Part shown: positions 10,649-64,000 of the stretch, one piece after another
Position numbering within the stretch: position 1 is the stretch's first letter
How the letters are laid out: every line of letters starts with the position of its first letter
Assembly: GCA_963709485.1 (NCBI GenBank)
Contig: CAVPWE010000001.1
Location: 11,810 to 75,809 of the forward strand
From: an uncultured delta proteobacterium
GTDB taxonomy: Bacteria; Desulfobacterota; Syntrophia; Syntrophales; Fen-1087
DNA length: 64,000 nucleotides
Direction: 5' to 3'
Position numbers and translations under genes: made by a program
Notes under the pieces: generated by a model
Told to the model about the DNA's origin: nothing
The model's input: the letters and a program-made list of their open reading frames with translations, nothing else
Database searches by the model: none

Positions 10649-10710
10649 GGTTTGTTTTTTCATATCTCCATGCAAATCACAAACTTTGTGATTTCAAGTA
10701 TATGCCGGAT

Positions 10711-10726
10711 TGGCATTGTTTGTGCT
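10711..10726 (+). promoter_or_regulatory. Sigma-54 (-24/-12) promoter
   Basis: TGGCAT-TGTTT-GTGCT with GG and GC in canonical GG-N10-GC spacing, about 120 nt upstream of the ATG at 10846. Confidence 0.6.
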
Positions 10727-10845
10727 TTATGTAACACGCGAATAGTATTACCGATTCTTTTTCAAGTCATTTCTCATCATGGGTTCAACTTTTTTGCCGG
10801 AGCACAGAAAAGTGAATATTCTATAGATTCTCGGGGGCAAACGAC

Positions 10846-11873: not shown

Positions 11874-11949
11874 TGGCGTCCCCACGGGGAGTCGAACCCC
11901 GGTTACAGGCGTGAAAGGCCCGTGTCCTAGGCCACTAGACGATGGGGAC
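11874..11949 (-). tRNA. tRNA-Glu (anticodon UUC)
   Basis: The reverse complement reads GTCCCCATCGTCTAGTGGCCTAGGACACGGGCCTTTCACGCCTGTAACCGGGGTTCGACTCCCCGTGGGGACGCCA. It has a cloverleaf, a CTTTCAC anticodon loop and an encoded CCA end. Confidence 0.95.
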
Positions 11950-26795: not shown

Positions 26796-27011
26796 CGCAA
26801 CGGCCGTTTGAAATAGAACAAACGTTCTATTATGTCAAATAAAAAAATATTGGGCATAAAAAATATTGGACGCCTGAAAAGTAAGAAAAAGGAGATCCGA
26901 TCCCAAAAGGATTCGTTTTACCCATGACCGGAGGGAAGTGACATGATTGTGCTCCCGGTTTTCCAAATGCAGAAGGCACGGCTGCAAATGAAGGTTTGGA
27001 GCTGTATTTTA

Positions 27012-27040
27012 TTGACATTTCGGAGTCATTTTCCTATTGT
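27012..27040 (+). promoter_or_regulatory. Candidate sigma-70 promoter of the AT-rich secreted-protein operon
   Basis: TTGACA (27012-27017), a 17-nt spacer, then TATTGT (27035-27040). Confidence 0.45.
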
Positions 27041-27120
27041 GGATGCATCCTTTACGCACATTCAGTGCCACGGATTCAGGGAATAGAAAAAGAAACTACC
27101 TTAAGTTGAAGGGAAATATT

Positions 27121-28368: not shown

Positions 28369-28377
28369 GAGAGAAAG

Positions 28378-29016
28378 ATGACAACAATATGCAAGGTGAT
28401 CCTTTCTTTATCTTTGATGATTATTGGTTGTTTCTCATATGCAACTTCAGCTTATTCTTGGCTCCTGTATAATAAGCCGGAGTTTCGAGGAGGTGTGATT
28501 GATGCGGAGACAAAGCAACCGGTCGAAGGCGCAGTGGTTGTGGTTTTGTATGAAAAGTGGGAATTCGGCGGGCCGGGAGGCGGCAATACTTTCCCGATAG
28601 ATGCAAAAGAAACACTGACTGATAAAGCTGGAGATTTTTACTTCCCTTCATACAAGACCCTGATAGGCCCTCTGTCTCGGGTATCTAATGTTTCCTTCAT
28701 CATCTTCAAACCCGGATACATGTCCATAAATAGAATTAAAGGAATAGAGATTCCTGATGAAAAATATTTTGCAATTAAACAAGACATGATCGGCAAGGAA
28801 GGGGAAATTAAACATGTCGATACTCGCTTTGCAGAGCCGGTCACTTATACGTGGAAGGGTTTGATGGGAATTGTGGAGCTGAAAAAGGCGAAGACATATG
28901 ACGAAAGAAGAAAAGGAGTGCCAAGTACTCCAACTGGTTACACTGCCAAAGATTTGCCGCTTATCTTCAAAGCAATTACTGATGACCGCAAAGATCGCGG
29001 ATTGGAGGTGAGATAA
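28378..29016 (+). CDS. Secreted/anchored protein with a carboxypeptidase-regulatory-like domain, copy A
   Basis: N-terminal signal/anchor, then GGVIDAETKQPVEGAVVVV (CarboxypepD_reg-like strand pattern). It is a paralog of 29595..30206. Confidence 0.55.
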   Translation: MTTICKVILSLSLMIIGCFSYATSAYSWLLYNKPEFRGGVIDAETKQPVEGAVVVVLYEKWEFGGPGGGNTFPIDAKETLTDKAGDFYFPSYKTLIGPLSRVSNVSFIIFKPGYMSINRIKGIEIPDEKYFAIKQDMIGKEGEIKHVDTRFAEPVTYTWKGLMGIVELKKAKTYDERRKGVPSTPTGYTAKDLPLIFKAITDDRKDRGLEVR

Positions 29017-29592
29017 ATGGAAAATAAAACCAGAACAATGTGTACAATATTAGTGATAATAGCCTGCTCGATGTTATTTGCATTTACTCAACCAAGTTTT
29101 GCTCTTGATACGAGTACTCATAAGGCACTGAACGAGTATATTGTACAGCAAAGTCTCAATGGTTTCTCTCTTAATGATTATTTAAAAACCCAATTGGGAA
29201 TAGAAGATGGAACAGAGGCTTACTTTAAAAACAGTGAGCTAAACCAACAAGTATTCAGGTGGGTTGGAGACGGTGGCGCATTTGAAGACAATCCTCCTGA
29301 ATGCTTTATTCCTTACATGCGTTCGCGTCATCATTTTCACAATCCCATAGACAATAGCGGTTTTTCGGGTATCTCGGACACAGGTATTTTATCGGGCATG
29401 TCTGCAACAGACTGGGCTATGCAACCTGTCGGTTCCCAGAGTTGCGGATGTTATTCGTGGAACGATGCGCGAGATTATTATTACAAAGCACTAACATCTG
29501 CCGACAAAGCAACCAGGGAAGCAAATTTTGCTGCAACTTTCAGAGCGGTAGGACAAGTCATGCATCTGGTGCAGGATATAAGGGAGGTTTGA
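29017..29592 (+). pseudogene. Truncated N-terminal copy of a zinc-dependent phospholipase C-like protein
   Basis: It has its own signal peptide and a diverged first ~84 codons, followed by 312 bp near-identical to 30477..30788. It ends abruptly (VQDIREV*) just before the metal-binding MSMPEH of the full-length copy. Confidence 0.65.
29268..29579 (+). repeat. 312-bp direct repeat, copy 1
   Basis: Base-by-base comparison with 30477..30788 shows one difference (T at 29292 versus G at 30501). The offset is 1209 bp. Confidence 0.95.
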
Positions 29593-29594
29593 TA

Positions 29595-30206
29595 ATGACG
29601 AAACTCATTTCGACCATTATTTCGGTATTTGTAATCTTCATTGCGGTATCAGCACATGCATGGCTCTACTACAGCAAGCCTGAATTCCGTGGGAGAGTGA
29701 TTGATGCTGAGACAAAACAACCGATTGAAGGCGCAGTCGTTGTTGTCGTGTATAATAAATGGGAGTTTGGCGGGCCGGGCGGCGGCAATACTGTACCTTT
29801 CGATGCAAAGGAAACCCTGACGAATCAAGACGGAGATTTCAACTTCCCTTCATACAAAACCATGATCGGTCCTTTATCAAGAGTGTCTGATGTTTCCTTC
29901 ATCATCTACAAACCCAGATATATGTCCGTAAATAGAATTGAAGGAATAAATATTCCTGATGAAAAATATTTTGCCATTGGGAAAGACGTGATCGGCATTG
30001 AAGGGGAAATTAAATATGTTGATACTCGCTTTGCAGAACCCGTCGCTTATACCTGGAAAGGCTTCAGGGGGATTGCGGAGTTAAAAAAGGCAAAGACAAA
30101 CGAGGAAAGAAGAAAAACGAGACCAAGTAGGGGTGGATTGGATGAATATCAATTACCCCTTTTTTTTAAAATATTAGAGGAAGAATATAAGCATGTCTAC
30201 AATTAA
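29595..30206 (+). CDS. Secreted/anchored protein with a carboxypeptidase-regulatory-like domain, copy B
   Basis: AGGGAGG RBS 7 nt upstream. The protein is clearly homologous to copy A over its full length, but the DNA has diverged. Confidence 0.55.
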   Translation: MTKLISTIISVFVIFIAVSAHAWLYYSKPEFRGRVIDAETKQPIEGAVVVVVYNKWEFGGPGGGNTVPFDAKETLTNQDGDFNFPSYKTMIGPLSRVSDVSFIIYKPRYMSVNRIEGINIPDEKYFAIGKDVIGIEGEIKYVDTRFAEPVAYTWKGFRGIAELKKAKTNEERRKTRPSRGGLDEYQLPLFFKILEEEYKHVYN

Positions 30207-30240
30207 GGAAAAGGTGTTTTAATCCTTGAGGAGGTCGAAA

Positions 30241-31842
30241 ATGAGCAACAGGAAAGAGAAGATATTTCTTGTAATCAATATTTCGTTAGCTTTTTTGCTA
30301 ATAGTCGTTAATAGTCTTTATGCGCTAGAAGTGGTAACTCACAGAGCCATAAACGAATATATTGCCAAAAGCGCATTTGTTGGATTTTCTTTAGATGATT
30401 ACATAAAACAGCAATTAGGCATGCAGAAGGGATATGATGAAAAATTATTGGGCAAAGAAGTATTCCTATGGCTATCAGACGGTGGCGCATTTGAAGACAA
30501 GCCTCCTGAATGCTTTATTCCTTACATGCGTTCGCGTCATCATTTTCACAATCCCATAGACAATAGCGGTTTTTCGGGTATCTCGGACACAGGTATTTTA
30601 TCGGGCATGTCTGCAACAGACTGGGCTATGCAACCTGTCGGTTCCCAGAGTTGCGGATGTTATTCGTGGAACGATGCGCGAGATTATTATTACAAAGCAC
30701 TAACATCTGCCGACAAAGCAACCAGGGAAGCAAATTTTGCTGCAACTTTCAGAGCGGTAGGACAAGTCATGCATCTGGTGCAGGATATGTCCATGCCGGA
30801 ACACACTCATAACGATGGTCACTTATTTAGCCAGTATGAGGACTGGGTCAAAGGCCAGAATGTCAGTTATTATTCAGTTTCAGTCGTCTCGTTTACGCCC
30901 AGCGCTTCAATCCCTTTATCGATTTATAATCTTTTTGATACGGAGCAGTATAGCGGTATGAATCCCGATATTACAGCTCAATCAACAATTGGTCTTGCAG
31001 AATACAGCAATGCCAACTTTCTCAGCCCTGACAAGATCTTTTCGGGTTTTGCCTACCCATCTTATAACGACGCAGCAGCAAGAATAGAGCGCGATCCGGC
31101 TACTGATAAAGATATCTTATACCTTGATAAAATCGGCCATGGCGAAAATATAAATTACTTAGCGCGAGCACAAGAATTTTATAACTATCTTCCCTCAGAT
31201 TACAAGAAATTATCCTTAACTCTTGACGATGCAAAGGTATATTCGAGCTATGCTGGCTTTCTCATGCCTCGCGCCATCGGCTATTCTTCTCAGGTATTGA
31301 GCTATTTTTTCCGTGGGCAATTGGAAGTAAAAATGGGTGACGGAACTTTAAAGGTTAAAAATGCTTCAGCGGAAACAATTTCAAGCGGAACATTTGCACT
31401 CTATTACGACAATGCCGACGGCGTGAGGTCTATCTTAACAAGCATGCAGGCCAACACTCTTACACCCGGAGGAGAACAAACGATTAATTTTACTCCGCTT
31501 GTCGGCGCGACAACCTATATGCTCGTATATCAAGGTCAGCTTGGCGATGAATCTAATGCTGTAATTGGTAAGTTTATTCCTATTCCTGTCGAACTTGTGA
31601 TGTTTACTGTGTCGCTTAGTGGTATTACTGGAGAGAATATGACAAAAAAATCAGTTTTAGTCTGGAACCCAGTAAGCAACGGTCTGGAAAAGCCACCCAT
31701 GGATAATGATGACCCTGATTTCCAAGGCTGGCTAATAGAGAAGAGGGACGTGGGTTATCCGATGTTTTCCGGTTTTTCCGGTGACATGGGGCAAATTGGG
31801 AATGGCGACAGTCAAAGAAGACATATGTGGGATGATGCTTGA
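30241..31842 (+). CDS. Zinc-dependent phospholipase C-like / S1-P1 nuclease-fold secreted protein
   Basis: Signal peptide, THRAINEY, HHFHNP and GQVMHLVQDMSMPEHTHND (HxxxDxxxPxH metal-ligand pattern). GAGGAGG RBS upstream. Confidence 0.55.
   Translation: MSNRKEKIFLVINISLAFLLIVVNSLYALEVVTHRAINEYIAKSAFVGFSLDDYIKQQLGMQKGYDEKLLGKEVFLWLSDGGAFEDKPPECFIPYMRSRHHFHNPIDNSGFSGISDTGILSGMSATDWAMQPVGSQSCGCYSWNDARDYYYKALTSADKATREANFAATFRAVGQVMHLVQDMSMPEHTHNDGHLFSQYEDWVKGQNVSYYSVSVVSFTPSASIPLSIYNLFDTEQYSGMNPDITAQSTIGLAEYSNANFLSPDKIFSGFAYPSYNDAAARIERDPATDKDILYLDKIGHGENINYLARAQEFYNYLPSDYKKLSLTLDDAKVYSSYAGFLMPRAIGYSSQVLSYFFRGQLEVKMGDGTLKVKNASAETISSGTFALYYDNADGVRSILTSMQANTLTPGGEQTINFTPLVGATTYMLVYQGQLGDESNAVIGKFIPIPVELVMFTVSLSGITGENMTKKSVLVWNPVSNGLEKPPMDNDDPDFQGWLIEKRDVGYPMFSGFSGDMGQIGNGDSQRRHMWDDA
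30477..30788 (+). repeat. 312-bp direct repeat, copy 2
   Basis: See 29268..29579. Confidence 0.95.
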
Positions 31843-31933
31843 CGCCGAATGGTGTTCCTCCCTGGTTATGGGAAGACGGCTGGTTCTATAATAGGAGGAG
31901 AAACTAACGCTATTCATTCCTGATTGGGGAGCT

Positions 31934-32332
31934 ATGACTTATCGGAATCCTTCTTGGTCAGATGAAGAGTGGTATATGTATCAAAGAGTCTGGTACGATA
32001 ACTTTATCTGTGGGCAATATACCGATAAAATAGTTGCTGATGTTTCCATGGTTCAGTACACACCTTATACCACCTATAGCAAAAGTTATGACGAACTGTA
32101 TAATACGCCTGCGCTCCCAACAACTTGGACATGTATGAATAGAAGCATCTTTGTGCAGGCACAGGCTCTTTATGTCCCACAGGGCACTGCTGGATTTGAT
32201 TGGATTGCGCAAGGCAGAAATACAGCTTTGGAAACACAAATTATTACGGCAATTAATATGGCCTATACTTTAAACAATATTCCGGCTAATGAAATACGCC
32301 AAACTTCCATAGAAATTAATATTGTGAAATGA
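31934..32332 (+). CDS. Hypothetical protein
   Basis: 132-aa ORF, W/Y-rich with no signal peptide. It is the last gene of the AT-rich block. Confidence 0.4.
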   Translation: MTYRNPSWSDEEWYMYQRVWYDNFICGQYTDKIVADVSMVQYTPYTTYSKSYDELYNTPALPTTWTCMNRSIFVQAQALYVPQGTAGFDWIAQGRNTALETQIITAINMAYTLNNIPANEIRQTSIEINIVK

Positions 32333-32457
32333 AGTAACAAATTAAGAAGACGGAATATGCGTTTCATCCGGTTGATGCGTACTTTTAGCAGTTGAAAAAA
32401 ATTGACATCGCGATGCGACAGCGGGACCATGCGGAAGCGCACCAGATCAGGAGGTTT

Positions 32458-52775: not shown

Positions 52776-52802
52776 TTTTCATTCAATGCAGGGAGGTTGA
52801 CC

Positions 52803-54300
52803 ATGAATGGTTATGAAGCGGTCGTCATCGGGGCGGGGAACGCCGGCATGACCGCCGCGGCGACGCTGGCCAAGAGCGGGGTGCGGACGCTGCTCCTGGA
52901 GCGGCACAACATCCCCGGCGGCTGCGCCACGAGCTTCTGCCGCGGGCGCTTCGAGTTCGAGGTGGCCCTCCACCAGTTGAGCGGCCTGGGCAGCGCGGCC
53001 GCGCCGGGGCCGCTCCGCTCGACCCTCTACGGCCTCGACGTCCTGGACAGGGTCGAATTCGTGGAGATGAAAAACCTCTACCGTGTCGCCGTCCCGGGAC
53101 AGCTCGACATCACCCTGCCCGCGAACCGCGAGGGCGTCGTCCGGGCGCTTCAGGAGCGCTTCCCCGAAGAGGGGGAGGCCATTGAGGCCTTCTTCGACCT
53201 CGTCTACGACTACTTCAACCAGTTCATCGCCATCTTCTTCCTTCGGGACCCCGAGGTCACCCGCGAGAAATACCCCCTGTACTTCGAGTACGCCCTGAAG
53301 CCCGCGCAGGAGGTCCTCGACCGCCATTTCCGCGACCCCCTGCTCAAACTGGCGCTCGGCGCTTACTGGTGCTACATCGGCGTGCCGCCCCGCCTTCTGC
53401 CCTTCGGCGACCTGGCCGCCCTCCTGTTACGCCTACATCGAGTTCAAGCCGTACCACATTCGGGGCGGCTCCCAGGCCCTCTCCAACGCCCTCGTCGACG
53501 CCTTCATCCGGAGCGGGGGCGAGGTCCGCTTCAACTGCCCCGTCGCGAAGATTTCCGTCGCGGACGGCCGCGTCGCCGGCGTCGTCACCGCGGCGGGCGA
53601 GGCGATTTCCGCGAAGTGTGTCATCTCCAACGCCTCCACCCTGACGACGTTCACGGAGCTGATCGACCGGAAGGACTGCCCGCCGGGGCCGCTGGAAACC
53701 ATGAGCGGCATGACGGTGGGGCCGTCGGTGGTTTGCCTCTACGTCGGGCTCGACTGCCCGCCGGAGGCCGTCGGCATTCATGAGGAGACGAACTTCCTCT
53801 GCGCCCACACGGACATGGAGCGCGCCTTTGCCGGGTACCGGTCCATCGAGGAGCCGCCGGGCATGGTGCTGCTCACCTGCTTCAACATCTCCGACCCCGA
53901 CGCCTCCCCGCCGGGGACTGCGCAGGTCGCCGTCGTAGACCTGAAATACGCCGACCCCTGGCTCGCCGTACCGCCGGAGCGCTACGCGGCGGAGAAGTAC
54001 CGCTACGCCGAGGGGCTGCTCGCCCTGGCCGAGGCGCACTGCCCCGGCTTCCGGTCGCACATCGAGGAGATCGAGGTCTCCACGCCGCTGACCCACCTGC
54101 GCTACCTGAATCACCCGGGCGGGGCGATCTACGGGTTCGACCAGTACGCCCGGGACAGCCGGCTCTTCCAGCCCCTGAAGCCCGGCATCCCCGGTCTGTA
54201 CTGCACCGGGGCGTGGGCGGGCGAGGGCGGGTTCCAGCCGACGCTGATGGCCGGGGCCGCGACGGCCCGCGCGGCCGTCAAGTACATTCGGGGAAAGTGA
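52803..54300 (+). CDS. CrtI/phytoene-desaturase-family FAD-dependent oxidoreductase with an apparent +1 frameshift at ~53427
   Basis: Dinucleotide fold AVVIGAGNAGMTAA...LLERHNIPGG in frame 3. After DLAALL, the sequence YAYIEFKPYHIRGGSQALSNAL...GKCVISNAS... and listed ORF 53701..54300 continue in frame 1. Confidence 0.7.
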
Positions 54301-54309: not shown

Positions 54310-55470
54310 ATGAGCGCAAAGGACTTCATTCGGGACATCGACGGTTACGAGGCGCTTCAGCGGGAGATCGCCGCCAGCCGGAAGTACGCGGCGGACCAGA
54401 CCGCGGAAAAGGGGAAGTGGGCGCGGATTCTGGATCTGCTCCACCCCGACCGGCTTTCGCTCCGGGTGAGCGAGATCATCGACGAGACGCCGACGGCAAA
54501 GACGCTGCGCCTCGTTTCCGCGACGGGATACCTGCCCCCCTTCCAGGCCGGGCAGTACATCAGCCTCTTCGTGGAGGCGGGCGGCGTCCGGACGAGCCGG
54601 CCCTACAGCATCTCCTCGTCGCCCCGCCAGCGGGCCTGCTACGACATCACCATCCGACGGGTGGAGGGTGGCTTCGTCTCCGATGTCCTGCTCACCGAAG
54701 CGAGGGTGGGCGCCGTGCTGGAGAGCACCGCCCCGGCCGGGAATTTCTATTTCAACCCCCTTTTCCACAGCCCCCACATGGTCTGCCTCGCCGGAGGGAG
54801 CGGCGTCACCCCCTTCATGAGCATGATCCGAGAGATCGCCGAGGCGGGCCTCGACCGGCGCCTGACGCTCCTCTACGGGAGCCGGAGCGAGGATGACATC
54901 ATTTTCGCGGAGGAACTCGAGGGGATCGCGGCGCGGCACGAAAACATCCGCTTCGTTCCGGTCATCTCCGAGCCGGGGACGGGGTGCCGACACCGGACCG
55001 GATTCCTCACCGCCGCCCTGATCCGGGAGGTCCTGGGCGACACGGACGGCCGGACCTTCTACCTCTGCGGCCCCGCCGAGATGTACGCCTTCTGCCTGCC
55101 GGAGCTGGAGAAGCTGGGCATCCCCCGCAGGCGGGTGAGGCGGGAGATGTACGGCCCGCCGCGAGATGTCACGGCGGACCCGGCCTGGCCCGCGGACGTG
55201 GCGGCCGGAAAGGTGTTCGAGGTCGCGATCCGGGGGAGGAAAAAGATCCCCGCCCGGGCCGGCGAGCCGCTGCTGGTCGCCCTCGAGCGCGCCGGCATCG
55301 CCGTCCCGGCCCAGTGCCGGTCCGGGGAGTGCAGCCTCTGCCGGGTGAAGCTCCTGGGCGGAAAGGTCTTCCAGCCCCAAGGCGTGCTGCTGCGCAAGTC
55401 GGACCGGGAATTCGGCTACATCCACTCGTGCATGGCCTGGCCCGTCTCGGACCTGGAGATCATGGTTTGA
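54310..55470 (+). CDS. FNR-like FAD/NAD(P)-binding oxidoreductase with a C-terminal plant-type 2Fe-2S ferredoxin domain
   Basis: RPYSISS (FAD), GGSGVTPFMSM (NAD) and C-terminal CRSGECSLCRV. Confidence 0.75.
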   Translation: MSAKDFIRDIDGYEALQREIAASRKYAADQTAEKGKWARILDLLHPDRLSLRVSEIIDETPTAKTLRLVSATGYLPPFQAGQYISLFVEAGGVRTSRPYSISSSPRQRACYDITIRRVEGGFVSDVLLTEARVGAVLESTAPAGNFYFNPLFHSPHMVCLAGGSGVTPFMSMIREIAEAGLDRRLTLLYGSRSEDDIIFAEELEGIAARHENIRFVPVISEPGTGCRHRTGFLTAALIREVLGDTDGRTFYLCGPAEMYAFCLPELEKLGIPRRRVRREMYGPPRDVTADPAWPADVAAGKVFEVAIRGRKKIPARAGEPLLVALERAGIAVPAQCRSGECSLCRVKLLGGKVFQPQGVLLRKSDREFGYIHSCMAWPVSDLEIMV

Positions 55471-55716
55471 GCGGCGTCCGCCGGGGCGGCATGCAACGGA
55501 ACGCGCACGTCAAACACCATATCTTGTGGTCAGCCTTATAAGCGCCCACCACATATCCTGTGCAGCCCCTCTTCACGGCTGAACAGCAGTCACGCCGCGA
55601 CGGCGGAGACCCTTTCGCCGCAGGGATGATTTCGAGAATGCGGCACCCATCCCACACCCTGCCGAAAATGTAATATCACCATAATTATCAGTTACTTGCA
55701 CGCTCTGAATCCGAAG

Positions 55717-55733
55717 TGTAAGAAATTCCGACA
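55717..55733 (-). promoter_or_regulatory. TGT-N11-ACA enhancer-like element (copy 3, inverted)
   Basis: The reverse complement reads TGTCGGAATTTCTTACA, two mismatches to the consensus. Confidence 0.5.
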
Positions 55734-55830
55734 CGGCGGCGGCGCGATTATGCATCCCGAGGGAGTGTAAAAAAGCTGAATGATGAAAAATAACTATAAG
55801 TTGCAATGATAATACCCCTAAAAAGAAAAG

Positions 55831-55847
55831 TGTAAAGAAATCCGACA
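55831..55847 (-). promoter_or_regulatory. TGT-N11-ACA enhancer-like element (copy 4, inverted)
   Basis: The reverse complement reads TGTCGGATTTCTTTACA, matching the consensus. Confidence 0.55.
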
Positions 55848-56121
55848 AGGGAACGCCATAATCTCCGGATCTGGTCATGCCGGTCCGGGAGTCCCGGCCA
55901 ATTTTCTTGCCCGCAGTCCCGGTTGCATCACCGGGGTCATCCCGTCGCGAGGAATGCCGATCTCATGCGATATCTGCATATGTCGTATCAATGCAATGGT
56001 TTAACCAATCAATCCAAGAAGATTGTGCGGGTGCCTTTTCCGATCGAAGATCGTTGCCCGGGAGTTTGTCGATGTGAGACGTCAAGGGGGGGCCGGGGAT
56101 GCTCCTGTTTGGATATTCATG

Positions 56122-56138
56122 TGTCGGAATACTTTACA
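56122..56138 (+). promoter_or_regulatory. TGT-N11-ACA enhancer-like element (copy 5)
   Basis: TGTCGGAATACTTTACA, one mismatch. The element ends 129 nt before the -24/-12 element at 56268. Confidence 0.6.
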
Positions 56139-56267
56139 ATATGAAACTGCGGGCATAGAGCGAATACAGCGCGCTTTATAGTGTAAGAAAATCAAAATAA
56201 AAATCTGCGAATAAATCCAAATATATATCATCATCGCGGGGGCGTCCCGCAACCGGCGGATTAATTA

Positions 56268-56283
56268 TGGCACGGTGTTTGTA
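56268..56283 (+). promoter_or_regulatory. Sigma-54 (-24/-12)-like promoter
   Basis: TGGCAC-GGTGT-TTGTA. The -24 element is perfect, but the -12 element reads TTGT instead of TTGC. Confidence 0.5.
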
Positions 56284-56347
56284 TGTAATCACCACAAAAG
56301 GGACTGCGAATCTTTTTAAAAAAAATATAAATTAAGGAGGTAAGAGT

Positions 56348-57100
56348 ATGAGAAAATTTTTAGTGGTCTTGACTGTAGCGATGTTTGTCGCAATGACAGG
56401 TGTAGTGCAGGCAAACACTTTCGTCAACGGGGGCTTTGAAAATGGTGATTTTAACGGTTGGAGCCAGGGTGGAGGTTTTTGGTACGGAGGCGGCGCACCG
56501 GTAAATCCTACCGTTTACCTTGGGGGTCAACCCAATAACTACATTATGAGCGCCGGTGCATTCGATCCTTATACGGGGGCTCAGGTTGTGTACAATGGCC
56601 TATACTCTGCGCGGGCAAATGACAATAACAACAACTACTCCGTATCCACTATCTATCAGTCAGTCACAAACTATACGGACAATAACATATATTTCGCATG
56701 GAACGCAGTTCTGGAGGCATCACATGGCTTGTATGACTCCGACTACTTCTCTCTGACACTGCATGATGACACCACCGGCACTGACATTGTCAGCCGTGCA
56801 TACAGCTCTGCGGGCGCCATTGGCGCTGGTACACAGGGTGTAACATGGACAAATTATAGCGGTGTGTATAGCTCCGGCTGGGTGACTGAACAGGTGGACC
56901 TCGCTGCGTTGGGTGTGGTTGGGCATAATTTCACCCTGACTTTGCTGGCTTCCGATTGTCCTTATTCAGGCCACTGGGGCTACGTGTATCTGGATGGTTT
57001 TGGTGGAAAGCCCCCGGTTCAGACGACTCCTGAACCGGCAACGCTGATCCTTCTTGGCCTGGGCCTGGCCGGGATGGCGACGCTGAGGAAGAAATTCTAA
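56348..57100 (+). CDS. PEP-CTERM sorting-domain secreted protein
   Basis: AAGGAGG RBS and a signal peptide ending VQA. The C-terminus TPEPATLILLGLGLAGMATLRKKF is PEP plus a TM helix plus a basic tail. Confidence 0.85.
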   Translation: MRKFLVVLTVAMFVAMTGVVQANTFVNGGFENGDFNGWSQGGGFWYGGGAPVNPTVYLGGQPNNYIMSAGAFDPYTGAQVVYNGLYSARANDNNNNYSVSTIYQSVTNYTDNNIYFAWNAVLEASHGLYDSDYFSLTLHDDTTGTDIVSRAYSSAGAIGAGTQGVTWTNYSGVYSSGWVTEQVDLAALGVVGHNFTLTLLASDCPYSGHWGYVYLDGFGGKPPVQTTPEPATLILLGLGLAGMATLRKKF

Positions 57101-57140
57101 GAAGCGATTTCAGAGCGTAACAGATTAAAAGAAATGGAAT

Positions 57141-57177
57141 GCCCGCTTGCCGCAACGCAGGCGGGCTTTTTTTATTG
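57141..57177 (+). terminator. Rho-independent terminator
   Basis: GCCCGCTTGC (57141-57150) pairs with GCAGGCGGGC (57157-57166), followed by a T7 tract. Confidence 0.8.
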
Positions 57178-57261
57178 TGCAAAAGTCCCGTAAACCCGGA
57201 AGATGCAATCCGCTCTGATGTCCATGGATGAGAAAGCGGCTGGTCCTGATGCGGGTGAAAC

Positions 57262-57766
57262 CTATTCCTGAAGTTGAGCTGTTTGTGCACCCGTCAGCCG
57301 GAGGACGTTCCGGATGACGACGTTTTCGAAGTCGCCTGCACCCATGCCGAGATTCCTGACCTTCCACAGCTCATGGTAAGGGCTGCCGAAGGGGAAGTCG
57401 CTTCCAAAGAGAAGCCTGCTGCTGCCATACCGTTCCAGGAACTGAGACATTTCGTTACTTGACGCCAGCGCCGTGTCGACGTAAACGGTCCCGTCGGCCC
57501 AGACACTGGCGCGAAGCAGGGCCTGGAAGCCGCCATTCAGCATCCCGGGGTGGGGGATGATGACGGGAGTCCGCCCCCGTACCTGCCTGATAAAATAGAG
57601 CGTGTTCTCGTAAGGACTCCTCCAGCAGGATTGGCCCGCTGTCGGCAGGCGGCCCAAGCCGAGGTGTCCTCGAAATGGCAGTCGTACCAGTCGTAAATGT
57701 CCTCCACCGGCGCGTAGAGGCAGGCCCCCTGGCCCAACCCCACCCCCCTTCCTGAAGGTGGCCTTT
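57262..57766 (-). pseudogene. Decayed copy of the amidohydrolase gene at 60906..61679
   Basis: DNA and protein homology to 60941-61606. A ~200-bp internal deletion (junction near 57641) shifts the frame, and the first ~25 codons including the HxH metal site are missing. Confidence 0.8.
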
Positions 57767-58038
57767 AGAAGTAGGTGAGCAGGAAGGTCGTCCTGAGGGG
57801 GATCAGCAAAGTCGTCGCGACGCTGCGGGTCTTGGGCGGGCAGAGCCTCACGGTCGAGGCCCACACCCCCGCTCGAAAGACATCCGTCGGGAACGCGATC
57901 CCCTCCGCATCCTCAAAATAAAAAAGGGCTGAATCATTCACAGGCCGATCGTAGCTACTATATTCGGATTGTTGTCGTCCGCTGTGACAGATAGAATATT
58001 GAACAAAAACAAGAGAGAACAAGTTGTTATGATTGGAG

Positions 58039-58055
58039 TGTCGGAATTCTTTACA
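58039..58055 (+). promoter_or_regulatory. TGT-N11-ACA enhancer-like element (copy 6)
   Basis: TGTCGGAATTCTTTACA, exact consensus. Confidence 0.65.
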
Positions 58056-58151
58056 AAAGGGCGAATGAGTGTTATACATTGTATTATCAATATTTTATCC
58101 TCTGAAAAGGCTAAAATAGCCTCACAAATGGTATATTTCTGCCCGATTTAC

Positions 58152-58168
58152 TGTCGGAATTCTTTACA
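58152..58168 (+). promoter_or_regulatory. TGT-N11-ACA enhancer-like element (copy 7)
   Basis: TGTCGGAATTCTTTACA, exact consensus. The element ends 74 nt before the -24/-12 element at 58243. Confidence 0.65.
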
Positions 58169-58242
58169 AAAGTGAATGTGCCTAATTCTATGGTGTGCTG
58201 ATTCCGAAACGATTTCAAATAGATGAAAAATATAGTAAAAAA

Positions 58243-58258
58243 TGGCATGCAAACTGCT
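58243..58258 (+). promoter_or_regulatory. Sigma-54 (-24/-12) promoter
   Basis: TGGCAT-GCAAA-CTGCT with canonical GG-N10-GC spacing. Confidence 0.6.
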
Positions 58259-58410
58259 AATAATTCATCATACAAACTTGCATGACCGTCAGTTGCGAGG
58301 ATAACGTGTGTATTTTTGTTATTTCTGTGATACCTGATAGTCGGCATTTCATCATTGACGATTGAAGTGCCGGCTTATTGCAGGCTACAGTGCAGTTAGG
58401 AGGTACTATC

Positions 58411-60843
58411 ATGTTCAGATCGTTGTTCCCGAAGATGCATCATTGTTTTTGTACGGTTCAGTCATTGGTTCTTCTTTTCCTTTTACCGGCTGTTTGCATT
58501 GCCGTTCCCGGTAGTGACAGGTCCACACCGGACAAGCAGGCCGTCCTGAATAAGCTGTCCGGCATCCACGTTCCTTTTGTCGAGAACAGGGGACAGGTGG
58601 GAGACGAGCGGGTCAGGTACTATGCCCGCACCTTCGGGGGCACGCTCTTCGTGACAGAATCGGGGGAGATGGTCTATTCTCTTCCTTTCAGGGACAAGAG
58701 TAAAATCGGGGACAGGGATGCTTCAAGACGGGTTACTGAAGGAGCGAGGGTCAGCACCGCTGGAGGTGTTTCGCTGAAGGAGACCCTGGTGGGCGGTTCC
58801 GTCGAAACCATCCGTGGCGAGGGGGTGTCCCCTTCCAAGGTAAGCTACTTCCGTGAGAATGACTATTCCCGGTGGCAGAGTGGCCTCGTCACATATAACA
58901 CGGTTTCCCTGGGAGAGGTTTACCCGGGCATCGAACTTGCACTGAAGGCTTATGGGAACAATGTGGAAAAGCTCTTCACATTGAAACCACACAGTGATCC
59001 AAGTCTCATAAGGATTAATATAGAGGGTGCAAAGGCTGTCGAAATCGCAGCAAACGGTGAACTGAAAATAACAACGGATATGGGTTTGGTGCGTTTCACG
59101 AAGCCGATGGCCTTCCAGGAAATCGAAGGGAGGCGAATTGATGTGCCGGTTCAGTATGCCCTGCAGAAAGGAAGTGTCGCCTACGGTTTCGCGGTCTCTG
59201 ATTACGACCGTACCTGTGATCTTGTCATCGACCCACTTCTGGCCTCAACGTTCCTGGGGAAAGCCAGTTATGAAATGGCGCAGGCCATAGCACTGGACGC
59301 ATCGGGGAATGTCTATGTGACGGGATTTACAGATTCATCTGAGTTTCCGACCAAGACAGGGGCCTATGACTTATCGTATAATGGTATCTTTGACGTATTC
59401 ATTTCAAAAATAAGCAGCGATCTGACGCAGCTTCTTGCCTCGACCTACCTGGGTGGAAGCAATGATGATGAGGCGCAGGCCATAGCACTGGACGCTTCGG
59501 GGAATATCTACGTGACGGGATTGACAAGATCCTCCGATTTCCCGACTACGCCAGGGGCCTATGACTCGTCAAAAAAGTCAAGAGACACGGTCAATAAAAT
59601 TCTTTTCGATGTCTTCATATCCAAACTCAGCGGAGATCTAACGCAGCTTCTTGCCTCAACCTACTTGAGTGGAAGTGCTATGGATCCTAATAGGAAGGGT
59701 GGAGATGATTATGCATCCGCCATTGCTCTGGACGCCTCGGGCAACGTCTATGTGGCAGGATGCACAAGATCAGTGGATTTTCCCACGACAGCGGGGGCCT
59801 ACAACCCGACAGGGAGTGGAAGCGATGAAAAGGATGACGGTTTTATTTCCAAGCTGAATGGAAACTTGACACAACTTCTTGCTTCCACATTTTTGGAGGG
59901 GGGAGATCATGATAGAATAGCTGCCATGAAGTTGGACGGTTCCGGGAATGTTTATGTAGCGGGAACTACAAGGTCAGTGGATTTTCCCACCACGGCGGGG
60001 GCTTATAATGATAAATTTGACGCGTTCATTTCCAAGTTAGACGGTTCTCTCGGTACACTGCTGGCTTCCGCCTGCTTAGGTGGGAGTGGGAATGATTCTT
60101 CCACAGCCATCGCCCTGGATACTTTGGGAAACATCTATGTGACGGGCATTTCAGATTCATCAGGACCCGGGGATTTTCCGATCACATCGGAGGCCTATGA
60201 TATATCCTTCAATGGTGGGGCTTGCGATGCCTTTATTTCGAAACTGAGCAGTGATCTGACTCAGGTATCCGCCTCCACCTTTCTGGGAGGAAGCGGTGCC
60301 GATTATCCCTTTGCGCTGGCCCTTGATTCTGCAGGGAATGTCTATGTAGCCGGACGTGTTGAATACACATCGAATTTTCCAACCACGGCAAGGACCTATG
60401 ACGAATCATTCAACGGAATGCACGATGCCTTTATTTCCAAATTCAACAATAGCCTCAACAGGTTGCTTGCTTCCACTTTTTTAGGTGGATCCTATTTCGA
60501 TGCGGCACATGCAATGGTCCTGGATGCCTCAAGGAACGTTTATGTGACAGGAGTCACGAGCTCAACCAACTTTCCCACAACAGCAGCGGCATATAAAAGC
60601 TCAATCAATGGCAACTATGACGTCTTTGTTTCCAAATTCGACTCGACGCTCAGGAGGCTCGACCCGAAGGGCGATGTGGACAGGAATGACATTGTCGATC
60701 TTGCCGATGCGATCCTGGCCATTCAGGTTTCTTCCGGAATGAGCAGCACGAACGTCACCCTCGATGCGGACGTGAACAAGAATGATCGGATTGACCTTGC
60801 CGAGGTCATCTACATCCTGCAGAAGATAGCGGGGATGAGGTAA
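58411..60843 (+). CDS. Secreted SBBP beta-propeller-repeat protein with a C-terminal dockerin-like (EF-hand-type) module
   Basis: AGGAGG RBS and a signal peptide. About 9 repeats of the pattern LASTFLGGS..D.A.AIALD.SGNVYVTG.T.S.DFPTT.GAYD. The C-terminus reads GDVDRNDIVDLADAILAIQ...DVNKNDRIDLAEVIYILQKIAG. Confidence 0.8.
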   Translation: MFRSLFPKMHHCFCTVQSLVLLFLLPAVCIAVPGSDRSTPDKQAVLNKLSGIHVPFVENRGQVGDERVRYYARTFGGTLFVTESGEMVYSLPFRDKSKIGDRDASRRVTEGARVSTAGGVSLKETLVGGSVETIRGEGVSPSKVSYFRENDYSRWQSGLVTYNTVSLGEVYPGIELALKAYGNNVEKLFTLKPHSDPSLIRINIEGAKAVEIAANGELKITTDMGLVRFTKPMAFQEIEGRRIDVPVQYALQKGSVAYGFAVSDYDRTCDLVIDPLLASTFLGKASYEMAQAIALDASGNVYVTGFTDSSEFPTKTGAYDLSYNGIFDVFISKISSDLTQLLASTYLGGSNDDEAQAIALDASGNIYVTGLTRSSDFPTTPGAYDSSKKSRDTVNKILFDVFISKLSGDLTQLLASTYLSGSAMDPNRKGGDDYASAIALDASGNVYVAGCTRSVDFPTTAGAYNPTGSGSDEKDDGFISKLNGNLTQLLASTFLEGGDHDRIAAMKLDGSGNVYVAGTTRSVDFPTTAGAYNDKFDAFISKLDGSLGTLLASACLGGSGNDSSTAIALDTLGNIYVTGISDSSGPGDFPITSEAYDISFNGGACDAFISKLSSDLTQVSASTFLGGSGADYPFALALDSAGNVYVAGRVEYTSNFPTTARTYDESFNGMHDAFISKFNNSLNRLLASTFLGGSYFDAAHAMVLDASRNVYVTGVTSSTNFPTTAAAYKSSINGNYDVFVSKFDSTLRRLDPKGDVDRNDIVDLADAILAIQVSSGMSSTNVTLDADVNKNDRIDLAEVIYILQKIAGMR

Positions 60844-60905
60844 GAAAATATCATCCTTCGGGACGACCAAGCCCAAGCCTTATGCAGCGGTTTCCTTGAC
60901 GCTTA

Positions 60906-61679
60906 TTACGGGGGAAGAGGCCAAGGAGACGGCTGCGTCCCAGTCAGCCGGAGAACATTCCGGCTGACGACGTTTTCGAAGTCGTCCGCCTTCATCCCGA
61001 GGTTCCTGACCTTCTGCAGTTCGTGCCGGGGGCTGCCGAAGGGGAAGTCGCTTCCGAACAGCAGCCTGCTGCTTCCGTACCGCTCCAGGAACTGCGCCAT
61101 CTCGCTACTTGTCGCCAGCGCCGTGTCGGCGTAGACGGTCCCGTCATCCCAGACGCCGGCGCGGAAAAGGGCGTCAAAGCCGCCGTTCAGCATCCCCATG
61201 TGGGGGATGATGACGGGGGTCCGCCCCCCGACCCGCTTGATGAAATAGCGTGTGTTCTCGAAGGACTCCTCCAGCAGGATGGGAAGACGCAGGCGGTACG
61301 CCTCCTGGAGGAAATCCTCGCAGCGGGGATCGTCATAATGATAGACGGGCTCGTAGTCGTGGCGGTGCCACTTGATCCCCCGGTACCCTTTCCCCAGCTC
61401 CTCCTTCCGGAAATCGTTCCAGACGAAATAGTAGGCGAAGCGGCTCCGCTCCGGCTGCTGCAGGTCCAGCAGGTAGCGGTTGGCCCGCTGTCGGCAGGCG
61501 GCCCAGGGCGACGTATCCTGGAAATGGTAGTCGTACCGGTCGTAGATGTCCTCCACCGGCGCAAAGAGGCAGGCCCCCGAAATGCCCCCTTCCTGAAGGC
61601 GGCCTTGAACCTCCTCCCAGGGGAGGCTGACATTCTGGACCCCGCAGTGCATGTGCGAGTCGATGATCGTGACGCTCAT
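60906..61679 (-). CDS. Amidohydrolase-family (TIM-barrel metal-dependent hydrolase, Amidohydro_2-like) protein
   Basis: N-terminal IIDSHMHCG metal motif and C-terminal LLFGSDFPFG. Confidence 0.7.
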   Translation of the reverse strand: MSVTIIDSHMHCGVQNVSLPWEEVQGRLQEGGISGACLFAPVEDIYDRYDYHFQDTSPWAACRQRANRYLLDLQQPERSRFAYYFVWNDFRKEELGKGYRGIKWHRHDYEPVYHYDDPRCEDFLQEAYRLRLPILLEESFENTRYFIKRVGGRTPVIIPHMGMLNGGFDALFRAGVWDDGTVYADTALATSSEMAQFLERYGSSRLLFGSDFPFGSPRHELQKVRNLGMKADDFENVVSRNVLRLTGTQPSPWPLPP

Positions 61680-61689
61680 AGGCGGCCCC

Positions 61690-62124
61690 CTACGGGCAGT
61701 CTCCCACCCGCCTTCCGCTGACGTGCTGTATGATTTTCAGCGGACCGGCATCCGGGCGCTGCATGGCCAGGCTGATGATGCCGTCGAACCGGCCGCCCCG
61801 GTAGGTCATGCTGCCGCTCCCGTCGATCGATCCTTCGCCGGCCTCGCATTTCATCTTCCAGGAGACGCTGTCGCCCGCCGTTTTTGTTTCCGTGATCCGG
61901 CAGGAACTGTCCTTCTGGAGGAGCTGCGGGACCTGGCTCCCGTCCTTCAGGCAGTGCGCCGAGGCAACCGGCGCCGGGTTCGACGGCAGTCCGGGCACCT
62001 CCATCCGAATCGTGATTTCCCAGAGGCCTTCCTGGATATTGGTTTCGGCCATCGCCGGGGCAGCCCGAAGCAGCAGAGCCACAATGATAAGAACGATCAC
62101 TCCCGGCCAAAATTTCGTGGTCAT
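61690..62124 (-). CDS. DUF3617-like secreted protein
   Basis: Start set at MTTKFWPG after a GGGGGAGG RBS. Signal peptide ending AMA, then EGLWEITIRME and spaced Cys residues typical of DUF3617. Confidence 0.55.
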   Translation of the reverse strand: MTTKFWPGVIVLIIVALLLRAAPAMAETNIQEGLWEITIRMEVPGLPSNPAPVASAHCLKDGSQVPQLLQKDSSCRITETKTAGDSVSWKMKCEAGEGSIDGSGSMTYRGGRFDGIISLAMQRPDAGPLKIIQHVSGRRVGDCP

Positions 62125-62138
62125 GGCGGCCTCCCCCA

Positions 62139-62592
62139 TCAGTACTGCCCCACGATCTGCCGGACCTTGTCCAGGTAGCCTTTCCGCGCGGCGTCGTCGA
62201 CGTAGGGGACGGCGCCGAAGAACTGGTGCGCCAGGACTTTCACCCCGCAGAACTCGTAGATGCCCGTGTCGGAGGTCTTCCTCATCGCATCGAACATGCC
62301 GGACTTCTCGTAAACCTTCTCCGGCGTCCCCTGCGTGTTGAGGATGACGGCCTTCTTGTCCGTGAGCAGCTTGACGATTCCCTTGTCGTCGGAGCTGTAG
62401 GCGAAGCCGTAGCTGAACACCCGGTCGATGTAGCCCTTCATCATGGCCGGCAGGCCCGTCCACCAGACCGGGTGGATGACGGTCATGATGTCCGACCAGG
62501 CGATGTGGTCCTGTTCGGCCTTGATGTCGGCGGGCGTCTTTCCCTCCTGCATGGCTGCCAAATCGGCGGCCTTGAGGACCGGGTCGAAGCCC
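62139..62592 (-). pseudogene. 5'-truncated flavodoxin-like-fold NAD(P)H dehydrogenase (quinone) gene
   Basis: Recognisable from LGFDPVLKAADL...HPVWWTGLPAMMKGYIDRVF onwards. The ~45-aa N-terminal flavin-binding strand and loop are absent. The upstream part of listed ORF 62139..62717 is merely antisense to the gene fragment at 62593..62708. Confidence 0.65.
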
Positions 62593-62708
62593 AGGGCGGC
62601 AGGGTCTTCCAGCCCCAGGGGGTGCTGCTGCGCAAGTCGGATCGGGAATTCGGCTATATCCATTCCTGCATGGCCTGGCCCATCTCGGACCTCGAGATCA
62701 TGGTCTGA
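62593..62708 (+). pseudogene. Orphan 3'-terminal fragment of a paralog of the 54310..55470 oxidoreductase gene
   Basis: About 120 bp aligns with 55355..55476 at an offset of 7238 with scattered mismatches. It encodes GGRVFQPQGVLLRKSDREFGYIHSCMAWPISDLEIMV* versus ...GGKVFQPQGVLLRKSDREFGYIHSCMAWPVSDLEIMV*. Confidence 0.8.
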
Positions 62709-62929
62709 GTGGCGCAAACCACAGACGGGGGACCCGGGCCGGGCAGCAGTTCTGCCCGCCCTCGTCCCTACCGCCTTTGCGATACAAGCCTGGGAACAAT
62801 CGCCAAACGTGAAGCCTCAGCCATGCATGCCCGCCCGCCACTGCCGGAATATTTGCAATCGCAAACACATGCCAGGCTATTGAAATGATTGATATACGCT
62901 GGAATCGGCCCATGCGTCCGCGGGTCCGG

Positions 62930-62946
62930 TGTCGGATTTCTTTACA
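62930..62946 (+). promoter_or_regulatory. TGT-N11-ACA enhancer-like element (copy 8)
   Basis: TGTCGGATTTCTTTACA, matching the consensus. Confidence 0.6.
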
Positions 62947-63042
62947 AAATGCGATCATGGCCAAAATTTTTTTATATGATCGCAATTCTTGACGATTTGT
63001 CTAAAAAATCCATTTTCACTCCTCCCCGTCCCCTCAACAGGA

Positions 63043-63059
63043 TGTCGGATTTCTTTACA
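63043..63059 (+). promoter_or_regulatory. TGT-N11-ACA enhancer-like element (copy 9)
   Basis: TGTCGGATTTCTTTACA, matching the consensus. The element ends 62 nt before the -24/-12 element at 63122. Confidence 0.65.
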
Positions 63060-63121
63060 GGTTCGCGCTGACCGGAGTTCCGGCATATAAATTCTTCCTT
63101 GTATTCAACTACTTGTAAATA

Positions 63122-63137
63122 TGGCACAAGAAATGCT
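63122..63137 (+). promoter_or_regulatory. Sigma-54 (-24/-12) promoter
   Basis: TGGCAC-AAGAA-ATGCT with canonical GG-N10-GC spacing. It lies inside listed ORF 63099..63461, so that ORF's annotated start cannot be real. Confidence 0.6.
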
Positions 63138-63284
63138 AGTGATTTGTACAACATGCATCGGAGATTGCAGTCTTGGTATCAAAATGGTCCGCAGGGCGTT
63201 GGGGAAGGGGCTCAAACGTTCGCCTGTTTATCAACTATCAAACAATCAATCCAAAGACAGGAAGGAAGGAGGGAGGAAACAGAA

Positions 63285-63461
63285 ATAAAGAAATTATTTT
63301 ACTCGATTCTTGCCGTGCCGGCGTTGATCGTGTTCAGTTCCTCGGTTTGTTACGCGGGTGCCCCGCCTTTGAATGTACCCGAACTGGTGGCATGGGTTCT
63401 CCTTTCAGCAGGTGTAGCCGGGGTGGCAGCTTACAGGCTCATCAGAAACCATAAAAAGTGA
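63285..63461 (+). CDS. Minimal PEP-CTERM-like protein (signal peptide directly followed by a sorting signal); non-canonical ATA at the expected start
   Basis: GGAGGGAGG lies 8 nt before ATA (63285). The product reads (I/M)KKLFYSILAVPALIVFSSSVCYA / GAPPLN / VPELVAWVLLSAGVAGVAAYRLIRNHKK. There is no in-frame ATG, GTG or TTG between the sigma-54 promoter and the signal peptide. Confidence 0.5.
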   Translation: MKKLFYSILAVPALIVFSSSVCYAGAPPLNVPELVAWVLLSAGVAGVAAYRLIRNHKK

Positions 63462-63591: not shown

Positions 63592-64000
63592 ATGATGAAA
63601 ATGAATACTCGTGTTTCAAAGGCAATCGCCTTGTGCCTGTTTCTGGCGACGGTCGTCTTTTTCGTAGCGCCTCCACAGGCCTTTTCTTCGGTCTGCTCGG
63701 GCACGATCGGCGATCGTGCGTGGATTGATACGAACGGCAACGGCTGCCAGGACGCTGGTGAGGCTGGCCTTGCGGGTGTGAAGGTGCACCTGTATGGGGG
63801 ATGCGACGGGAACACCGAAGTTCCATCCGCGGTCACCACGGATGCGAACGGAAACTACCTTTTTAGTGGCCTGTGTCCCGGAACCTACAGGGTTGAGTTT
63901 GAAACCCCGACAGGTTACAAGCAAACCCAACACAACCAGGTGTGTAATGACGATCCTGCTGTGAGTGACGGGCAGGACAGCGATTGCGGGAGTACTGACA
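63592..64000 (+). CDS. Secreted SdrD B-like (Cna-B-type) repeat protein; 3' end lies outside the window
   Basis: My own translation; the ORF is absent from the track because it runs off the window edge. AAAGGAGA RBS, MMKMNTRVSKAIALCLFLATVVFFVAPPQAFS signal peptide, then GDRAWIDTNGNGCQDAGEAGLAGVKVHLY...TTDANGNYLFSGLCPGTYRVEF. Confidence 0.7.
   Translation, partial: MMKMNTRVSKAIALCLFLATVVFFVAPPQAFSSVCSGTIGDRAWIDTNGNGCQDAGEAGLAGVKVHLYGGCDGNTEVPSAVTTDANGNYLFSGLCPGTYRVEFETPTGYKQTQHNQVCNDDPAVSDGQDSDCGSTD

Follow-up and report, generated by a model that had tools for sequence, protein, structure and literature searches.

The stretch of DNA described here, 64 kb from contig CAVPWE010000001.1 of an uncultured delta proteobacterium (the window), carries nine copies of a 17-nucleotide (nt) element, referred to below as the box, together with promoters of the σ54 -24/-12 type. 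Four transcription units lie behind these elements: a gene for a PEP-CTERM protein, a gene for an SBBP beta-propeller protein with a dockerin-like C-terminus, a mini open reading frame (ORF) together with an SdrD_B-domain gene, and a gene for a protein with ribbon-helix-helix (RHH) and PilZ domains (Table 1). Judged by alaS (~70% similarity), the organism is related to Deltaproteobacteria MAG HGW-12. All nine boxes are intergenic and are distributed over four AT-rich, non-coding stretches of ~0.55-1.3 kb each; no 17-mer was seen inside a gene of the window. The initial annotation of this DNA had listed seven copies with at most two mismatches, all of them intergenic. All seven are present at the positions and on the strands given there, and two more were found at 10443(+) and 10632(+), upstream of the RHH+PilZ gene.

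Table 1. Boxes, promoters, genes and other features of the 64-kb window
Feature	Position	Strand	Remarks
Box-bearing non-coding stretches	~9525-10845; 55471-56347; 57865-58410; 62718-63284		
Distal box, TGTCGGAATCCTTTACA	10443-10459	+	centre ~ -286 from predicted start site
Proximal box, exact consensus	10632-10648	+	centre ~ -97
σ54 -24/-12 promoter, TGGCAT-TGTTT-GTGCT	10711-10726	+	spacer from box 62 nt
RHH+PilZ protein gene, 164 amino acids (aa)	10846-11340	+	predicted member of the box-controlled regulon
Weak GG-N10-GC element, TGGGAT-GGGTG-CCGCA	55639-55654	-	4 mismatches to consensus; 62 nt past inverted proximal box
Inverted proximal box, 2 mismatches	55717-55733	-	
Inverted distal box, exact	55831-55847	-	114 nt from 55717 partner
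Single box, 1 mismatch	56122-56138	+	upstream of PEP-CTERM gene; centre ~ -164
σ54-like promoter, TGGCAC-GGTGT-TTGTA	56268-56283	+	GT, not GC, at -12; 129 nt after box 56122
PEP-CTERM protein gene, 250 aa, signal peptide, C-terminal TPEPATLILLGLGLAGMATLRKKF	56348-57100	+	PF07589, 30 bits; TIGR02595
Intrinsic terminator, 10-bp stem with 8 GC pairs, T run	57141-57166	+	after PEP-CTERM gene
Distal box, exact	58039-58055	+	centre ~ -222
Proximal box, exact	58152-58168	+	centre ~ -109; 113 nt from distal box
σ54 promoter, TGGCAT-GCAAA-CTGCT	58243-58258	+	spacer 74 nt
DUF7948 + SBBP beta-propeller protein gene, 810 aa, weak dockerin-like C-terminus	58411-60843	+	Pfam
Distal box, exact	62930-62946	+	centre ~ -210
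Proximal box, exact	63043-63059	+	centre ~ -97; 113 nt from distal box
Integration host factor (IHF)-like site, ATTCAACTACTTG	63103-63115	+	1 mismatch to WATCAA-N4-TTR; between box and promoter
σ54 promoter, TGGCAC-AAGAA-ATGCT	63122-63137	+	spacer 62 nt
Mini ORF, 58 codons: signal-peptide-like N-terminus, VPEL, hydrophobic stretch, basic tail	63285-63461	+	
Secreted SdrD_B-domain protein gene, 5' part	63592-64000	+	PF17210, E=3e-27

The window was searched on both strands with the pattern TGTCGGAWTTCTTTACA, allowing up to two mismatches, and dinucleotide shuffles served as the null. The nine matches compare with 0.01 expected, and permitting a third mismatch yields no additional site. Exactly nine sites are also obtained with the core TGTCGG-N5-TTTACA at one mismatch or fewer. 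Core sites with two or three mismatches occur at about the shuffle level (6 vs. 3.2 and 46 vs. 35, respectively), and additional degenerate boxes were rejected for this reason. As judged from non-seed copies in other genomes, the informative positions of the box are 1-6 and 12-17, while positions 7-11 are free. By eye, a possible inverted, half-decayed box lies at 56182-56198, where 11 of 17 positions match.

Perfect matches to TGGCAY-N6-TGCW number three in the 64 kb, compared with 0.42 expected, and all three lie 62-74 nt downstream of a box. Two of them, at 58243 and 63122, had been proposed in the initial annotation and are confirmed; the third is at 10711. The element before the PEP-CTERM gene had been given there as a GG-N10-GC element with an imperfect -12. 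The imperfect -12 and the 129-nt spacer hold good, although the sequence in fact reads GG-N10-GT. Since 129 equals 63 + 6 x 11, the element is in helical phase with the usual spacer class.

The TTTACA at the 3' end of the box could be read instead as the -35 hexamer of ordinary σ70 promoters, with the remainder as an upstream extension. One box lends itself to this: at 55831(-), TTTACA is paired with a TATTAT at 16 nt (10 of 12 positions match in a consensus scan). However, this is one box of nine, the sequences after the boxes differ, and it is a -24/-12 element, 50-130 nt from the box, that is conserved as its partner. In the consensus scan, σ70-like matches in the region are at the shuffle level as well (11 vs. 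7.1±2.9). The σ70 reading was rejected on these grounds and deserves very little credence.

The sequence identifies the 17-mer as motif 1 of Haft et al. 2006 (BMC Biol 4:29, PMC1569441), the "PEP-CTERM box", so that the window provides a new instance of a known module. The passages of that paper drawn on here describe motif 1 as 17 nt long, ending in TTTACA at its 3' end and "sometimes repeated". It is followed by a 17-nt motif 2 that fits the σ54 -24/-12 consensus, with a spacer of 62.8 nt (standard deviation 10.6, range 32-92). According to the same passages, the motif occurs in long intergenic regions, never within coding sequence, upstream of proteobacterial PEP-CTERM genes, which mostly form single-gene operons, plus a few other genes. 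The motif is described there as confined to Proteobacteria, it shares its phylogenetic profile with PrsK, PrsR, and PrsT, and PrsR (TIGR02915) is its predicted binder. The window 17-mer was matched to this published text (length, TTTACA end, spacing, and context) rather than base by base to the logo. In these respects the window agrees with the published description: a 17-nt element with a TTTACA 3' end, repeated, ~63 nt from a -24/-12 element, within long non-coding regions. It differs in that most of the served genes are non-PEP-CTERM genes, one of them encoding the apparently cytoplasmic RHH+PilZ protein, and in that one inverted pair of boxes is an orphan. The initial annotation had considered the paired usage, the inverted copies, and the extension to non-PEP-CTERM cargo to be uncharacterised. 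That claim of novelty is largely wrong, since repeats, the -24/-12 partner, and a few non-PEP-CTERM genes already appear in those passages. What the present work adds is incremental: an 11.1-bp quantisation of distances, a frequent IHF-like site, a recurrent RHH+PilZ target, and the orphan inverted pair. These side results leave the classification unchanged, and the finding itself is an ordinary one.

The distribution of the box was determined by scanning a species-representative genome collection for the exact 17-mer (loci numbered L001 onward). It was found in at least 120 stretches, from Alpha-, Beta-, and Gammaproteobacteria as well as from Geobacter, Syntrophales, and Smithella-type metagenome-assembled genomes (MAGs). 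Beyond these, the matches listed include Nitrospirota, Nitrospinota, Acidobacteria, and Verrucomicrobiota. Thiobacillus, Geobacter, Dechloromonas, and Azoarcus, all among the genera listed, are on the 2006 list of PrsKRT-positive organisms. About 100 chance matches are estimated in the 596 Gb, and a few in-gene matches in unrelated phyla look like chance. Among the matches listed, the orientation of the box relative to the promoter is fixed: 85 σ54-like sites lie downstream in the same orientation, with a peak at 60-69 nt, vs. 3 upstream and 1 antisense. A PEP-CTERM tail terminates 24 of the 36 complete ORFs that come first after a box and promoter in these loci. Full modules are present among them in Nitrospirota, Verrucomicrobiota, and Acidobacteria MAGs, whereas the passages from 2006 place the motif in Proteobacteria only. 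In addition, a bona fide PrsR gene (TIGR02915; 638 and 703 bits, cut-off 502.6) lies no more than 8 kb from a box in two loci, L035 and L110. The first of these, a Nitrospirota locus, also contains a 39% identical homolog of the window's PEP-CTERM protein behind a canonical box and promoter.

Spacers between box and promoter are quantised at 11.1 bp (Rayleigh R=0.70, one module per assembly, n=66). In the listed loci they fall into classes of 51-53, 60-65, 73-77, 83-86, 97-99, 106-109 nt and so on. Of the modules outside the main class, 30 of 37 are within ±2.5 nt of 63+k*11.1 (p=8e-6); because shared descent of promoters inflates phasing statistics, this p-value is indicative only. Box-to-box distances follow the same period (88-89, 99-103, 108-114, 120-123, 133-137, and 188-189 nt). 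The window fits this phasing, with spacers of 62, 62, 74, and 129 nt and box-to-box distances of 113, 113, 114, and 189 nt. An IHF-like site is present in 32 of the 66 spacers, compared with 5.9±2.1 after shuffling, and mostly ends 5-19 nt before the -24 element; within the window a clear one is found at 63103-63115 only. These observations establish the sites as non-random, define their geometry, show that they are conserved across genomes, and reveal what kinds of gene follow them.

The box is very probably a PrsR-type enhancer for σ54 promoters of surface-protein and other genes. As an upstream activator sequence, it would recruit a σ54-dependent regulator of the NtrC family, namely a PrsR-type response regulator (TIGR02915) whose phosphorylation presumably comes from the sensor kinase PrsK. 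The boxes of a module (one or two, centred at about -97/-109 and -210/-222) and the -24/-12 promoter would all share one helix face. Bound PrsR would then oligomerise and loop over the AT-rich spacer, which often has an IHF-like site, and its use of ATP would open the σ54 closed complex. In this way PrsR may switch on mostly single-gene units: those for the PEP-CTERM protein, the SBBP/dockerin-like protein, the mini ORF (probably with the SdrD_B adhesin-like gene), and the RHH+PilZ protein. We infer PrsR binding to the box, σ54 dependence in the present organism, and DNA looping. The initial annotation had likewise taken the 17-mer to be the operator of a PrsR-like protein for secreted cargo. 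The operator is the interpretation given in the 2006 passages, and the comparative data fit it; the restriction to secreted cargo fails because of the RHH+PilZ gene.

Two classical enhancers offer a comparison. The NifA upstream activator sequence is TGT-N10-ACA and works with IHF and the σ54 promoter of nifH. It shares with the box the outer TGT...ACA, a location ~100 nt or more upstream of the -24/-12 element, dependence on the face of the helix, and an IHF bend site. The box, in contrast, has N11 between its outer triplets, a conserved, asymmetric interior (TGTCGG vs. TGTAAA), and a fixed orientation. The proteins differ also, NifA being a GAF-domain activator and PrsR a receiver-domain regulator of a different activator family. 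At glnAp2, the NtrC enhancer consists of tandem sites at which the phosphorylated response regulator oligomerises and activates σ54 polymerase by looping. Those sites are a few helical turns apart and dyad-symmetric, whereas paired boxes are ~10 turns apart (99-114 nt). The geometry of the 17-mer, which had been called typical of NtrC/NifA-type sites, is similar to that of NifA sites (N10) without being identical, and the motif is asymmetric and used in a single orientation.

Closer to the present case are the pepA promoters of floc-forming Betaproteobacteria (Aquincola tertiaricarbonis RN12 and Zoogloea resiniphila; PMC9850573). In Aquincola the promoter of pepA, a PEP-CTERM gene, (TGGCAC/CTGCTT) has a mapped start site and is RpoN-dependent; a "previously predicted enhancer sequence" lies upstream of pepA, and flocculation needs prsK and prsR. 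Like the modules of the window, these consist of a PEP-CTERM-type σ54 promoter and an upstream enhancer. They are known from experiment in another organism, whereas the window module is known from sequence alone; the binding of PrsR to the enhancer is a prediction in both.

Several observations weigh against a PrsR-type enhancer. None of prsR, prsK (TIGR02916), prsT (TIGR02917), rpoN, or an exosortase gene (EpsH/XrtA) is present in the 64-kb window, nor was a GAFTGA-type σ54 activator signature found in any of its six reading frames. The half-sites TGTCGG and TGTAAA form an imperfect dyad, and the box is strongly asymmetric; dimeric proteins with a Fis-type helix-turn-helix usually bind true palindromes, and the box is not one. 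Only one of the served genes encodes a PEP-CTERM protein. The module before that very gene is the least canonical, with a single box, GT at -12, and a 129-nt spacer outside the published range of 32-92 nt. At least two copies of the box, those of the inverted pair, have no evident regulatory target, given that no gene lies downstream of them. Finally, no report of direct PrsR-box binding was found in the literature searched, in which the module has been a prediction for twenty years.

The PEP motif, hydrophobic helix, basic cluster, and signal peptide of a PEP-CTERM sorting signal occur together in the 56348-57100 product only. The strong terminator at 57141-57166 makes its gene a single-gene operon. 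PEP-CTERM genes thus account for one of the four box-served units in the window. The gene at 58411-60843 encodes an SBBP protein, as had been annotated; the dockerin part of that annotation is weak, the Dockerin_1 match (E=0.004) being under the Pfam cut-off. Family models and a tail hidden Markov model (HMM) detect no PEP-CTERM tail on this product. A comparable case was observed in Pseudoduganella buxea (L093, oriented position 1190), where a 745-aa protein with, by eye, a dockerin-like C-terminus is encoded behind a canonical box and σ54 promoter; it is a non-PEP-CTERM cargo of the same kind.

The mini ORF had been described as PEP-CTERM-like. This is not supported, since its score against the tail HMM built in this analysis is E=1.2, and it matches no Pfam or NCBIfam family. 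In place of ATG, GTG, or TTG it has ATA at 63285, 8 nt past GGGAGG; the ATA may be an unusual start codon or may result from a mutation or sequencing error. The ribosome-binding site is strong (GGAAGGAAGGAGGGAGG, window 63260-63290). The frame has no ATG, GTG, or TTG downstream of the ATG at 63153, which itself lies ~5 nt past the predicted start site. No plus-strand terminator was found between 63461 and 63592, and the SdrD_B gene, having no box of its own, may therefore be co-transcribed with the mini ORF. Rfam detects no riboswitch or small RNA (sRNA) in the long leaders; its single match in the window is a tRNA gene at 11877-11949(-), which adjoins the RHH+PilZ module. The box regions and the genes behind them (9500-11000, 55640-56340, 57900-58410, and 62880-63290 with following genes) have a GC content at third codon positions of ~0.46-0.66, compared with 0.7-0.9 for housekeeping genes. 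This low value suggests an acquired or separately evolving gene pool.

Pfam matches of the RHH+PilZ protein are marginal: PilZ (PF07238) is found with E=3e-4 and a score of 21.4 vs. a cut-off of 22.5, RHH_1 with E=0.014 is also under its cut-off, and no NCBIfam model matches the family. Across 25 homologs, the RxxxR and DxSxxG motifs are retained, with R56, R60, S88, and G91 invariant and D86 nearly so. An AlphaFold model (predicted local distance difference test score, pLDDT, 76.7) has as its best Foldseek matches the PilZ domains of BcsA, Alg44, MapZ, and MrkH, the best structural matches being PilZ structures with bound cyclic di-GMP (c-di-GMP). Given this modelled fold and these motifs, both characteristic of c-di-GMP receptors, the protein is predicted to be one. 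It has no evident signal peptide, and since its gene stands behind boxes and a promoter, the box regulon here is not purely one of secreted cargo.

Homologs that are ~30% identical occur in four box-selected, delta-type MAG loci in the order box, RHH+PilZ gene, box pair, promoter, PEP-CTERM gene. When contexts were chosen by protein homology only, a box preceded the RHH+PilZ gene in four of six (L122, L124/L125, L126, and L127). The more distant homologs at L128 and L129 have no box, and the RHH+PilZ gene was rejected as a universal box target. Both L124 and L127 retain the 188-189-nt box-to-box distance and the 63-nt spacer of the window locus. In an alignment of the three, both boxes and the promoter are conserved blocks: the proximal box (10632) is invariant, the distal box of the window has one substitution, and one promoter position is variable. 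As a side observation, this ~164-aa family with intact c-di-GMP motifs is uncharacterised (members in the window and at L007, L024, L047, L057, L122, L124, L126, and L127). It is found recurrently behind PEP-CTERM boxes and beside PEP-CTERM genes in Desulfobacterota-type MAGs.

This recurrence allows another explanation, namely that some other regulator, specific to the lineage, binds the box and PrsR has no role; an autoregulatory RHH+PilZ protein would be one example. Its own gene stands behind boxes in the window and in the four of six contexts just mentioned, it adjoins box-driven PEP-CTERM genes in the four delta-type loci, and no PrsR was found in the window. Nevertheless, the box is identical across Alpha-, Beta-, and Gammaproteobacteria and other phyla, whereas the RHH+PilZ family is found only as ~30 clusters from uncultured relatives. 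Furthermore, the fixed distance and phase to a σ54 promoter demand an activator of the AAA+ class, to which an RHH+PilZ protein does not belong. The phylogenetic profile of 2006 points to PrsR, and PrsR genes adjoin boxes in L035 and L110. A lineage-specific regulator is consequently improbable, and PrsR is retained as the favoured candidate.

The inverted boxes at 55831(-) and 55717(-) are 114 nt apart, comparable to the direct pairs, and are directed at the 3' end of an oxidoreductase gene on the plus strand (54310-55470). Past them lies only the weak element at 55639; neither an ORF with a ribosome-binding site nor a minus-strand terminator was found downstream of the pair. Among the matches listed in other genomes, boxes upstream of modules are in the opposite orientation in 6 cases, vs. 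13 in the same orientation. Considering the gene fragments and duplications nearby, a decayed or rearranged module is the simplest reading of the inverted pair, although the pair could conceivably give rise to an antisense transcript or act on 56348 as a remote enhancer.

Duplications in the region comprise 55341-55476 with 62579-62714, 57290-57589 with 60940-61239, and the SBBP repeats. The first involves the 3' end of the oxidoreductase gene, whose copy (87% identity) immediately precedes the third box region and is joined there, in antisense, to a flavodoxin-like ORF that is truncated (62139-62717). The second belongs to a truncated copy, at 57262-57864, of the amidohydrolase gene 60906-61679 (83-90% identity). 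The cargo region is thus a patchwork of rearrangements. The boxes themselves as parts of segmental duplications were rejected, since the duplicated pieces are gene fragments and SBBP repeats and the boxes lie outside them.

Such surroundings, along with an inverted pair lacking a target gene, would also be expected if the boxes had been left behind by a small mobile or repeated element and lay near promoters by coincidence. Indeed, in Verrucomicrobiia the 17-mer lies within a longer repeat with ACGAACCC(A/G)AG repeats and no σ54 promoter. In the window, however, the flanks of the nine copies are unrelated, and the repeat finder places no box inside a longer duplication or a repeat family extending past 17 nt. 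The boxes form footprint islands in orthologous intergenic regions, and across phyla they keep the same orientation, spacing, and 11.1-bp phase with respect to the -24/-12 promoters. An origin as mobile-element remnants is accordingly most improbable. The Verrucomicrobiia element was seen in MAGs of this group, several copies per MAG (L005, minus strand, oriented position 152; L010, 2406; L017; L022; L067; L077, 5556). Behind the 17-mer come 3-6 copies of (A)AACGAACCC(A/G)AG, to which L005 adds a hairpin with a T run; no -24/-12 promoter and no PEP-CTERM gene lies directly behind it, and Rfam has no family for it. The element, which is unrelated to the window, may represent an sRNA or an array of binding sites.

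With PrsR as the presumed activator, the observations can be joined in a broader proposal, which is tentative and on balance doubtful. In this Desulfobacterota-like lineage the box regulon may have been extended beyond sorted surface proteins, with the RHH+PilZ protein linking PrsK/PrsR signalling, through feed-forward or feedback, to DNA binding that depends on c-di-GMP. Boxes and promoter would be held strictly on one helix face by 11.1-bp steps and an IHF-type bend, and the inverted pair would be a decayed module or an antisense driver. The analysis assigns four transcription units of the window, and probably many more genome-wide, to one predicted σ54/PrsR regulon for surface and aggregate-forming proteins, a system that has been tied genetically to floc formation in wastewater bacteria. 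For work on PrsR binding it provides several handles: the 6+5+6 core, the fixed orientation, the 11.1-bp phasing, the frequent IHF-like site, and the conserved RHH+PilZ target.

Other parts of the window were noted in passing. A low-GC island at 26900-32400 (41-43%, vs. ~60% around it) lacks PEP-CTERM boxes. Its products include several proteins with a signal peptide and no family match, some of them internal paralogs, and 17-mers in it are identical at 29390 and 30599 and likewise at 29490 and 30699. The overlapping ORFs 52797-53783 and 53701-54300 look, by eye, like a single FAD-dependent oxidoreductase split into an N-terminal and a C-terminal part, and this suggests a frameshift or assembly error near 53700-53780. 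Finally, an exact-protein look-up retrieved a Logan contig of 4,967 nt that is identical to window positions 55431-60397.

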